From positions 1 to 4,188 of the IMG/VR virus record IMGVR_UViG_2526164602_000025: a DNA stretch of 4,188 nt; one strand, 5' to 3'. Made by a program: the position numbers. Positions 1 to 3,000 of this stretch are shown piece after piece (position 1 is the stretch's first letter; the number at the start of each line of letters is the position of its first letter). This DNA is from a virus (lineage: Duplodnaviria; Heunggongvirae; Uroviricota; Caudoviricetes).

Positions 1-3000
1 TGATACCTATGGAGAAAAAATAAAGGAACGATACTTTCGTACTCTGGTTTTTAATGAAAACAGTTCTTATTGTCAACAATAACGGAAAGAAATTATGACA
101 TTTCTGAACCAGTTAATGCTGTACTTCTGTACGGTGGTCTGTGTGCTGTATCTCCTTTCGGGTGGGTACAGGGCCATGCGTGACTTCTGGCGCAGACAGA
201 TTGACAAAAGGGCCGCTGAGAAAATCAGCGCCAGTCAGTCAGCCGGAAGCAAACCCGAAGAGCCGCTCATTTAGCGGCAACTTTCTTAATCACACCTTTC
301 GACGAGAAAATCCCATGTCAGAAATTACATCCCTGGTCACTGCAGAGGCAGTGAAGGACGTCCTGCGCTCTGAAGAAGTCCGGAGCGCACTGAAACAGAA
401 ACTTCGCCATAACCTGGAAGCGCGTCTTGATGCAGAAGTGGATGCCATTCTGGATGAACTGCTTGGTGTACAGGCAGAGCCACCGACTGAAGCGGGAGAT
501 ACCACCGCAGAGAGCGGTGAAGTTCAGCCTGAATCACCGGTCGCCGATGCGACTGAACCTCAACCCGAATCGGTCATGATGCTGTAACGGGGAGTCAGGG
601 CCATCAGTAAACAGCTGCTGGCCTTTTTCATGTTGTGAGCTTCCGGATTGCGGGAGACGGGGTATGTACCAGATGGAAAAAATCACAACAGGTGTGTCAT
701 ACACCACGTCAGCGGTGGGAACGGGCTACTGGTTCCTGCAGTTGCTGGACAGGGTTTCCCCGTCTCAGTGGGCGGCAATAGGCGTGCTGGGGAGTCTGCT
801 GTTTGGTCTGCTGACGTACCTGACGAACCTGTATTTCAAGATTAAAGAAGACCGGCGTAAGGCGGCGCGGGGAGAGTAAGCTGATGAGCAGGAAATTCCG
901 CTATGGTTTATCAGCGGTAGTTCTGGCGCTGATTGCCGCAGGTGCTTCTGCGCCTGAAATCCTCGACCAGTTTCTGGATGAAAAGGAAGGTAACCACACC
1001 ACGGCATACCGTGATGGTGTGGGTATCTGGACCATCTGCCGTGGAGCCACCCGGGTGGATGGTAAGCCTGTGATTCCTGGCATGAAGCTGTCGAAGGAAA
1101 AATGCGACCGGGTTAACGCTATCGAACGGGATAAGGCGCTGGCATGGGTGGCGAAGAACATCAGAGTGCCACTGACTGAACCCCAGAAAGCGGGTATTGC
1201 GTCATTCTGTCCTTACAACATTGGCCCCGGTAAGTGTTTCCCGTCGACGTTTTATAAACGAATTAATGCAGGTGATCGAAAAGGTGCCTGCGAAGCGATT
1301 CGCTGGTGGATTAAGGACGGTGGCAGAGACTGCCGTATCCGCTCAAATAATTGCTACGGTCAGGTATCAAGACGTGACCAGGAGAGTGCGCTGTCATGCT
1401 GGGGTATCGACAGGTAAGCAGAATATTTTGCTGAAAAATGACGTTGGCCAACGCGGGCAGATAACACGAAATCCTGCGAACTGGCAAAATGTAAGTGAAT
1501 AAAGTCAACAAGATTGTTTCATGAAGAGGCACCGTAATGGTGCCTTTGTCATTTCTGCGCTTCGCACAAGCGTAAATAAACCAAAGAACCTTTCAGGATG
1601 AGCCCTGGTGGATAACCGGCAGTGGTCTGGTTAACCCTCTTTGGGCTGGTTATTCCTGTGCGCAGGGTTCATCACTAAAAGGAAATAACCGATGAATATG
1701 ATGACCGTGCCGTTTCACGGCGATTCTCTTTATGTGGTTAACCATAACGGCGAACCATACGTTCCCATGAAACCTGTCGTTGCGGGGATGGGGCTGGCCT
1801 GGCAATCACAGTTGGCTAAGTTAAGACAGCGTTTTGCGTCAACTATAACGGAAATCGTTATGGTTGCTGAGGATGGGAAACGACGCAATATGGTGTCCCT
1901 GCCGCTTCGAAAACTTGCAGGCTGGTTACAAACCATCAATCCCAACAAAGTAAAACCCGAAATCCGCGGCAAGGTAATCCAGTATCAGGAAGAGTGTGAC
2001 GATGTTCTCTATGAATACTGGACGAAGGGTTTTGTCGTTAATCCCCGTCGAATGAGTGTGATGGAAGAACTCAATCAGGCTTGCGCTGACATGAAACGGG
2101 ATAAAAACATTGCCAGTGTGTTTGCTACCGGGCTGAATGAGTGGAAACAGGTTAAATCCGCGCATGTATCAAAAATCCGCACATTGATAAACGAAGCGAA
2201 TCTGCTGATTGATTTTGTCCTGGCTGATACAGGCAAAGGGAAAATAACAAAGGCGGATTGATGGAGTGGTGGCTAATGATATCGGATAAACTCATAACGC
2301 TGGCGAAGATCCTCTGTGTAATCGTCGGCATTTCATTTTTAGTCATGCTGGTTGCCATTTTCTTTTCCACCGCCTGGCGAGTCCTGACGTTATCGGGACT
2401 GGTGGGGTGAAAGAGAGATGAACCGTGTTCTGTGTGTGGTGATTATTGTCCTGCTGGTAGCCTGTGGTGCGCTTAGTCTGGGGCTGAATCATTACCGCGA
2501 TAACGCCATAACCTACAAAGAGCAGCGCGATAAAAAAGTCAGTGAGCTGGAGCTGGCAAATGCAACCATTACTGATATGCAGCAGCGCCAGCGTGATGTT
2601 GCTGCACTTGATGCCAGATACTCGAGGGAATTAGCCGATGCGAGAGCTGAAAATGAAACTCTTCGCGCTGACGTTGCCGCTGGTTACCGCAGCCTGCGGA
2701 TCAACGCCACCTGTCCAGGTCCCGTGCGTGAAGCCACCGGCACCGCCCGCGTGGATAATGCAACCGGCCCCCGACTGGCAGACACCGCTGAACGGGATTA
2801 TTTCACCCTCAGAGAGAGGCTGATCACTATGCAAAAACAACTGGAAGGAACCCAGAAGTATATTAATGAGCAGTGCAGATAGAGTTGCCCATATCGATGG
2901 GCAACTCATGCAATTATTGTGAGCAATACACCCGCGCTTCCAGCGGAGTATAAATGCCTAAAGTAATAAAACCGAGCAATCCATTTACGAATGTTTGCTG

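Follow-up and report, generated by a model that had tools for sequence, protein, structure and literature searches.

The interval between the endolysin gene R and the spanin gene Rz of a 933W-type (Traversvirus) Shiga toxin (Stx) 2 phage is probably a portable accessory cassette of the late operon, of the kind that carries rha in P22 and phi80: a terminator, a structured leader and an exchangeable gene of the Bro network. As part of the same reading, its 189-aa product would not be a P22-type antirepressor. The interval occupies positions 1418-2417 of the window, by which we mean the whole stretch of 4,188 nt analysed here (positions 1 to 4,188 of IMG/VR record IMGVR_UViG_2526164602_000025), which the listing of open reading frames (ORFs) and the Pfam and PHROG scans place in the late region of such a phage. 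On its left is R, a signal-anchor-release-type endolysin (884-1417, + strand; Pfam Phage_lysozyme, E 2.9e-24; phrog_7, endolysin), and on its right is the i-spanin Rz (2418-2882, + strand; Pfam Phage_lysis, E 1.6e-49; phrog_13). Between them the listing gives a non-coding gap of 274 nt (1418-1691), a 189-aa ORF called 'Ant' by annotation (1692-2261, + strand; Pfam P22_AR_N and ORF11CD3) and a small hydrophobic ORF, the micro-ORF (2276-2410, + strand; 44 aa from its conserved ATG).

A first-pass annotation of this DNA had the coordinates right throughout: the end of R at 1417, the start of Rz at 2418, the 274-nt gap, the 189-aa ORF and the hydrophobic ORF. Its view that about 1 kb of modular cargo sits in the R-Rz junction is borne out by the swap boundaries mapped below and by the contiguity of R and Rz in K-12 Qin, P22, phi80 and phage 2851, so that 'insertion into the junction' is a fair term for the block. 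The gap, which it had called regulatory-looking, does hold a conserved terminator-like hairpin followed by a structured leader. The block as a whole is common. Matches to it came from 316 phage records (≥99% identity in 126), and over 100 Stx phages, in which its gene is annotated 'ant', carry it at 100% identity. Of 5426 complete E. coli genomes, 691 contain the block at ≥80% coverage, frequently in several of their prophages.

The ~200 nt upstream of the Ant ATG have one architecture across genera, consisting of a terminator-like hairpin (T1), a short hairpin (H2) and a long interrupted hairpin, all on the + strand in the window. T1 (1525-1547) is GC-rich with a T-rich tail; the terminator scan finds 10 pairs and then GTCATTTCTG. 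An equivalent hairpin and T-run follows the upstream gene in every genus compared, RNAalifold recovers T1 with compensatory changes, and the phi80 record has a putative terminator annotated at the equivalent site. H2 (1556-1574) is a 7-bp hairpin found by folding. The long hairpin (~94 nt, 1589-1682) is supported by folding (minimum free energy z-score -3.75), by a covariance model built for the leader (R1) and by RNAalifold. Folding gives it a lower stem of CCUUU (1589-1593) with AAAGG (1678-1682), a helix P1 (1597-1607 with 1663-1673), a helix P2 (1610-1619 with 1646-1656) and an apical helix P3, with an internal loop, UGUGCG (1657-1662), on its 3' side. The Shine-Dalgarno sequence AAGGA (1679-1683) overlaps the lower stem and is followed by the ATG of the 189-aa ORF at 1692-1694.

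Comparative evidence for this structure is consistent between alignments. For the 18 core pairs, the MAFFT alignment gives 92.3% pairing, which falls to 41-49% if the partners are shifted relative to each other, and 13 of them have changed on both sides; across alignments the values are 92-94% against 41-52%, with compensatory changes at 13-14 pairs. Among 23 covariance-model matches, an extended structure of 27 pairs is 91.9% paired, and 21 of these pairs have compensatory changes. The model scores the two strands at 79 and 17 bits and G-U pairs are frequent, and this combination argues that the element is an RNA made from the + strand. The GG of the Shine-Dalgarno sequence (1681-1682) is predicted to pair with CC at 1589-1590, partition-function folds give this GG core a pairing probability of ~1.0 in 20 of 21 leaders, and alignment pairs 11-113 and 13-112 of the helix are 86% paired. 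The folds thus place the Shine-Dalgarno sequence inside a conserved helix. No family of Rfam 15 (sar, C4, isrK, STnc100 and others) matches the window at E≤1, and at E≤10 the P22 and Xenorhabdus leaders give only sub-threshold matches, far below gathering scores. Several known RNAs of Stx phages and prophages were considered for the gap and set aside: AsxR lies 282 bp 3' of stx2AB on the antisense strand, AgvB is located elsewhere, and the Pas small RNAs (sRNAs) map between the esterase and holin genes. The supplements of Tree 2014 hold no entry for the gap locus.

The two hairpins of the leader appear to be tied together. The loop of H2, CGCACA (1563-1568), is Watson-Crick complementary to the internal loop UGUGCG of the long hairpin, and the two loops covary from phage to phage, in about 10 distinct sequence combinations. 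Where the H2 loop is CUGACGU, CUGACAU or CUAGCAU, the internal loop is ACGUCAG, AUGUCAG or AUGCUAG, respectively; CCGAAA is matched by UUUCGG, UCUCAC by GUGAGA, UCACAC by GUGUGA, UGCCC by GGGCA, CCGCA by UGCGG and UCCACC by GGUGGA. Because the register of the kissing pair moves by -1 to +2 nt between clades, complementarity was tested between each H2 loop and its own or another phage's internal loop, instead of by a column-based count: Watson-Crick runs of at least 6 nt occur in 14 of 22 own pairs and in 11 of 434 cross pairs. The version of this test to rely on is the hairpin-agnostic one, as the automatic picker of H2 misassigned three sequences. The covariation supports a contact of the pseudoknot type. 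Equivalents of the kissing pair that differ from one another yet remain complementary were seen at L004, L006, L013, L014, L018, L020, L032, L089, L170 and L171 (L-numbers denote loci in our comparisons), a phage-to-phage variation reminiscent of what sets specificity in immunity RNAs of the c4/CI type. With up to 10 leader copies in a genome of enterohaemorrhagic E. coli (EHEC), prophages could conceivably cross-talk or be insulated from one another.

What connects the window to rha is the range of genes that this leader precedes. The covariance model scores the window leader at 71 bits (E 1.8e-13) and, outside its seed, finds leaders at the rha genes of P22 (39533-39646, 77 bits) and phi80 (79 bits), at the KilA-N gene of phage 2851 (79 bits) and at a Rha-like gene after Rz in the O104:H4 phage P13374 (45 bits), as well as before KilA-N (L017), Rha (L032, L016), Bro-N (L033) and KilAC (L083) genes. 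The model matched none of the 58 further loci with just a relative of the P22_AR_N domain, and therefore the leader tracks the lysis-adjacent late cassette and not the domain. By blastn, the leader is in 816 of the 5426 E. coli genomes, in up to 10 copies each, before Ant-N, Rha and KilA-N genes, and the same leader, 94% identical through codon 4, stands before a different, 231-aa gene in E. coli. The leader-plus-gene cassette follows Rz in P22, phi80, phage 2851 and P13374, and at L032 it lies ~270 nt after a DUF1378-like match. Some phages have two such cassettes, in tandem or flanking Rz (L017 3967-5543, L016 4890-6605, L171 1027-3052), with KilA-N then Ant, Ant then Rha, or Ant and Rha, and each has its own kissing pair. 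In phi80 (L170), a weak second match to the leader at 3958-4053 (25.6 bits, E 6e-4), before an ORF annotated as N15 gp59-like, may be a diverged copy.

An RNA from this hairpin has already been seen in P22. P22F is an 89-nt RNA that accumulates in P22 infection and has been listed with 'no known function' (PMC13397905). Its printed sequence is exactly the long hairpin of P22 and ends 6 nt before the ATG to which the model aligns, and we take the long hairpin of the window to be its orthologue on the basis of the alignments. The alignments bear on gene starts as well. The annotated rha starts lie inside the leader hairpin, at 39575 in P22 (L089, BK000583) and at 2438 in phi80 (L170); the in-frame, model-aligned ATGs downstream, at 39644 in P22 (178 aa) and at 2474 in L170 (172 aa), agree with the point at which Rha homology begins and are more likely to be the true starts. 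In the phi80 record, rha is described as 'DNA synthesis inhibition in IHF- hosts', IHF being integration host factor, and a literature summary reports that Rha is detrimental to lytic growth without IHF and that rha is regulated by IHF (PMC4936722).

The 189-aa protein fits the same picture. Pfam assigns residues 5-113 to P22_AR_N (E 8.5e-45) and residues 122-164 to ORF11CD3 (28 bits, with a cut-off of 25), with ORF11CD3 in the place of P22_AR_C, which is not found. P22 Ant itself is P22_AR_N plus P22_AR_C, the latter at residues 200-272, and its BLASTP alignment with the 189-aa protein covers residues 1-126 only, at 48% identity. Since P22_AR_C is absent, the protein is not a P22-Ant orthologue. 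A domain composition of N-domain plus ORF11CD3 is seen instead in P22 Rha (Phage_pRha and ORF11CD3, the latter at 96.7 bits), in the KilA-N protein of phage 2851 (KilA-N and ORF11CD3) and in the Rha-like protein of P13374 (Phage_pRha and ORF11CD3), although ORF11CD3 is not detectable by Pfam in phi80 Rha. Because of these three proteins, we read the 189-aa protein as having a Rha-class architecture with a swapped N-domain. By its domains it shares a cassette type with rha but is not a member of the Pfam Rha family: P22_AR_N is the sole N-domain that Pfam detects, Phage_pRha is not found, and TIGR02681 does not match. The same domain content places it in the domain-swapping 'Bro network' (PMC10111431).

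Other searches with the 189-aa protein gave little, with no match in NCBIfam or PADLOC and no relative in a PDB sequence search with an Ant profile. In a structure model, the N-domain has a fold like that of KilA-N/APSES domains, of a DNA-binding type. The form of ~188 aa is kept at 60-94% identity in E. coli, Salmonella, Photorhabdus, Xenorhabdus, Serratia, Proteus, Providencia, Arsenophonus, Sodalis and Hamiltonella, and this conservation across genera led us to reject the idea that the ORF is a truncated pseudogene. We found no functional study of the lysis-cassette ant gene in the literature, in agreement with the first-pass remark that the Ant-like gene between R and Rz of Stx phages is uncharacterised. 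The Ant of phi24B for which an induction phenotype was measured is not this protein: a different gene, upstream of qut, encodes it, and it resembles P22 Ant in its C-terminal part.

A synteny scan with one genome per species, which returned 80 loci, shows how the cassette is placed. Full-length Ant orthologues lie between a gene in the endolysin position and the spanins in Salmonella (L003), Xenorhabdus (L004, L009, L013), Arsenophonus (L012, L016), Proteus (L018), Serratia (L020) and Providencia (L021), and immediately downstream of the spanins in Photorhabdus (L006) and Symbiopectobacterium (L017). These syntenic orthologues are 60-77% identical, while the adjoining lysins have GH108 plus PG_binding_3, Phage_lysozyme, a weak M15-like match or no assignment, and one spanin gene lies inside the other at some loci but apart from it elsewhere; by these comparisons Ant has been conserved much more strongly than the genes around it. 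In Xenorhabdus, Proteus and Providencia, the stop of Ant abuts or overlaps the start of the i-spanin gene, with no micro-ORF there. At Salmonella enterica L003, the stop of the Ant orthologue is overlapped by a 60-aa ORF (5558-5740) that encodes a lipobox-like LLVGC. Its vicinity yielded no homologue of Rz, and its product may be a unimolecular or orphan spanin-like lipoprotein.

The boundaries at which cargo is swapped fall at 1503/1504 or 1704/1705 on the left and at ~2274-2279 on the right. L084 and L086, which have neither Ant nor leader, align with the window from R through 1503, where their homology breaks, and so define an R-distal spacer (1418-1503, + strand) that is common to all cargo variants of the R-Rz slot. 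The portable leader module is then 1504-1704, with T1 as its first element. An alternative cargo in E. coli has the same gap followed by a 231-aa KilAC ('ANT') protein (L083, L173), and other E. coli variants (L084-L086) lack the leader and have hydrophobic ORFs of 60, 51 or 28 aa. In the slots of L084 (2304-2632) and L086 (2793-3141), hydrophobic ORFs of 60, 51, 43 and 28 aa form strings, and two of these tiny ORFs share the motif ALAFAIKWVAVG..YGLAKLVIALKS.

The micro-ORF has a different history. It can be read as 50 aa from a TTG at 2258 or as 49 aa from an ATG at 2261 that shares one base with the ant TGA. All 22 distinct micro-ORF versions begin M(I)SDK, and it is not until 2274-2279 that the window again aligns with prophages that have other cargo, so the conserved start is the ATG at 2276, which gives 44 aa. 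The 49-aa ORF overlapping ant that the first-pass annotation described thus exists if ATG 2261 is used, by a single base, and does not overlap ant if the conserved start is used. A GGAG at 2263-2266 is a possible ribosome-binding site. All 22 distinct DNA versions are open, with a median ratio of nonsynonymous to synonymous substitution rates (dN/dS) of 0.34, which is moderate evidence that the micro-ORF is coding. It belongs to phrog_4906, which is labelled as of unknown function. Its relatives form 59 clusters, from E. coli sources only and all 'hypothetical'; Pfam, PADLOC and NCBIfam have no match for it.

In viral contigs, the dominant order is R-Ant-microORF-Rz. In E. coli lambdoid prophages, whatever the cargo, Rz is always directly preceded by a 43-44-aa homologue of the micro-ORF, which occurs there without Ant, after the 231-aa KilAC protein or after other micro-ORFs. 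Ant, in turn, occurs without the micro-ORF in other genera. The two had been proposed to form a coupled two-gene system, and this distribution speaks against it: the micro-ORF appears to be a separate element of the E. coli lineage that travels with Rz and not with Ant, and the two genes are neighbours by lineage and do not form an obligate pair.

Taken together, these features suggest how a cassette of the rha kind could work. T1 would admit only Q-modified, terminator-resistant RNA polymerase from PR', and expression would be strictly late; this Q-dependent read-through step draws on what is known of lambda-type late operons. The ~130-nt leader, with H2 and the long hairpin tied by the loop contact, would then throttle or switch translation: the long hairpin would base pair with the Shine-Dalgarno sequence of the downstream gene, and the pseudoknot would open or lock the ribosome-binding site. 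The third layer would be the exchangeable Bro-network gene, which here combines the N-domain of P22 Ant with ORF11CD3. By analogy with Rha, its product is probably a non-essential DNA-binding modulator, harmful to phage DNA synthesis when over-produced, which would explain the tight control.

A number of points weigh against this reading. The structure model from which the DNA-binding type was judged is of moderate confidence, with a predicted local distance difference test (pLDDT) score of 66, and P22F could be a stable decay fragment instead of a functional RNA. Occlusion of the Shine-Dalgarno sequence is predicted with modest discrimination, as 15 of 32 other P22 genes also have pairing probabilities ≥0.8 there. 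A simple consensus scan found no sigma-70-like promoter in the gap, which has the terminator at its 5' end, and a scan of this kind could miss one located between T1 and the leader. Judged by the consensus, the gap of the window shows no sign of the classic link to IHF: WATCAANNNNTTR has no site in 1418-1691, and its total in the window is at chance. Finally, with an N-domain 48% identical to that of P22 Ant, the protein could possibly have antirepressor activity.

It is unlikely, in our judgement, that the protein is a true antirepressor, whose P22_AR_N domain would bind a CI-type repressor of its own or a co-resident lambdoid prophage and speed or spread induction in the manner of P22 Ant and the antirepressors of Gifsy. 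The similarity to P22 Ant over residues 1-126, the uniform 'antirepressor' annotation and EHEC genomes with up to 10-11 copies among many prophages, where effects in trans are conceivable, all fit such a role. Against it, P22_AR_C is absent, and the Stx-phage Ant known for an induction phenotype is that other gene upstream of qut, with its C-terminal similarity. A late-operon gene behind a terminator-like hairpin would moreover be made after the decision to lyse, and five unrelated N-domains behind the same leader in the same slot fit a shared regulatory logic better than recognition of a repressor. We find it quite unlikely that Ant, the micro-ORF or both modulate holin, endolysin or spanin function or Rz expression as an accessory of lysis timing. 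Such a link is suggested by a place between endolysin and spanins that is kept across genera with unrelated lysins, by the junctions where the Ant stop touches the i-spanin start, and by the micro-ORF, a membrane peptide always directly before Rz. However, the same cassette stands after Rz in P22, phi80, phage 2851 and P13374 and follows a DUF1378-like match at L032, so the exact R-Rz position is not required; the fold of the 189-aa protein is of a cytoplasmic, DNA-binding type, and the micro-ORF is absent outside E. coli.

The first-pass annotation leaned towards a moron for superinfection exclusion or abortive infection, in which a DNA-binding sensor and a membrane effector would be expressed from the prophage. 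The block is indeed cargo-like and swappable and includes a small membrane peptide, and de-repressed Rha is summarised as leading to abortive infection in IHF- hosts (PMC4936722), but Ant, the micro-ORF and the alternative cargo all lack PADLOC matches, the gap begins with a terminator and shows no promoter-like site in the simple scan, Ant and the micro-ORF are not co-inherited, and translation appears from the folds to be locked and not constitutive. We now consider this explanation highly improbable. It is also very unlikely that the gap has no specific function and holds generic terminators or mRNA-stabilising hairpins, with P22F as a degradation remnant. In its favour, phages often have hairpins between genes, the scan counted 10 terminator-like sites in the window where 4 are expected, and the control for Shine-Dalgarno pairing is weak; compensatory changes together with a covarying long-range loop pairing would be unexpected of generic terminators, as would so strict a link, in several genera, to downstream genes of a single class.

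The rha-type cassette that we favour could have a more far-reaching form, which we offer as a rather improbable speculation. The leader would represent a new class of phage riboregulator in which the loop pair is a phage-specific 'address', and a processed, P22F-like hairpin without H2 would work in trans, on H2 loops in nascent leaders of its own prophage or of others in the cell, in an RNA network that decides the late translation of Rha, KilA and Ant-like proteins. If true, such a network of trans-acting addresses could also explain the long-unexplained phenotype of Rha.

Among known systems, P22 orf201 and phi80 rha are the closest to the cassette of the window, each being a late-operon gene beside the lysis genes with a terminator-like hairpin and the same leader before it, and P22 Rha also has a C-terminal ORF11CD3 and a leader hairpin that is P22F. 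The window differs from both in its N-domain, which is P22_AR_N and not Phage_pRha, and in the location of the cassette between R and Rz and not after Rz. With P22 Ant, the antirepressor of immI, the protein shares a homologous P22_AR_N domain at 48% identity; unlike P22 ant, the window gene has no P22_AR_C, no immI context of arc and mnt and no sar match in Rfam, and it is in the late operon. The concept of the Bro network reportedly originated with Iyer et al. in 2002. The network comprises the domains Bro-N, KilA-N, Rha, ANT/KilAC, P22_AR_N/C and ORF11CD3 (PMC10111431). The 189-aa protein resembles its members in being a two-domain combination, and in this slot members of the network replace one another, but membership gives no biological role, since members include repressors, antirepressors and killing functions.

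A structured RNA upstream of or within a Bro-network gene is also found in P1 c4-icd-ant, P4 CI/seqA-eta, Gifsy-1 IsrK-anrP and P22 sar-ant. In these systems, the structured RNA governs gene expression, and the loops of c4 and CI are specificity determinants, which the phage-variable complementary loops of the window recall. Unlike the c4, isrK and sar systems, the leader has no similarity to C4, isrK or sar in Rfam and has its pairing partners in cis, and neither an antisense promoter nor a termination mechanism is evident. In the rep leaders of IncI-alpha and IncB plasmids (ColIb-P9 repZ, pMU720 repA), a pseudoknot is the activator of translation. These leaders likewise have an upstream hairpin whose loop pairs with a distal sequence, next to a structure in which the ribosome-binding site is sequestered, but neither a leader peptide nor an antisense Inc RNA was identified in the window. 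The gene and its odd position have long been known and are widely annotated. Its identity as part of a rha-type cassette and the conserved pseudoknotted leader common to P22, phi80 and Stx phages appear to be new, although Henthorn & Friedman 1995 may already mention inverted repeats.

Upstream of R, the ORF listing with Pfam and PHROG gives a DUF1378 ORF (95-274), a DUF826 ORF (315-587) and an S21-type holin (664-879). A hairpin and T-run at ~601-630 lies with the DUF1378 and DUF826 ORFs in the segment between the esterase and holin genes (95-663), and a 2026 preprint places the prophage sRNAs PasA and PasC in the same general location. Many relatives (L083, L084, L086, L173) have a gene of the YdfR family between holin and endolysin that is absent from the window, and the S-R junction is thus a second variable slot of the lysis cassette. 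Rz1 (2638-2823) is embedded in Rz and is followed by bor (2914-3207, - strand) and, from 3519, by an element of the IS3 family. This insertion sequence (IS629-like, 3519-4188, transposase on the - strand) is inserted 311 nt past bor, and window positions 1-3518 are 100% identical to an Stx phage free of it.

If the reading put forward here is right, the 'ant' of Stx2-phage lysis cassettes, copied as an antirepressor in hundreds of annotations, belongs with the rha-type late genes, and P22F gets a likely cis-regulatory role. The leader offers a mutable handle on how potentially toxic DNA-binding proteins may be kept in check, and on the block to phage growth that Rha was long ago seen to cause in hosts deficient in IHF. 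In EHEC, the cassette is in the same operon as stx2 and the lysis genes, and its modulation there could bear on toxin release.

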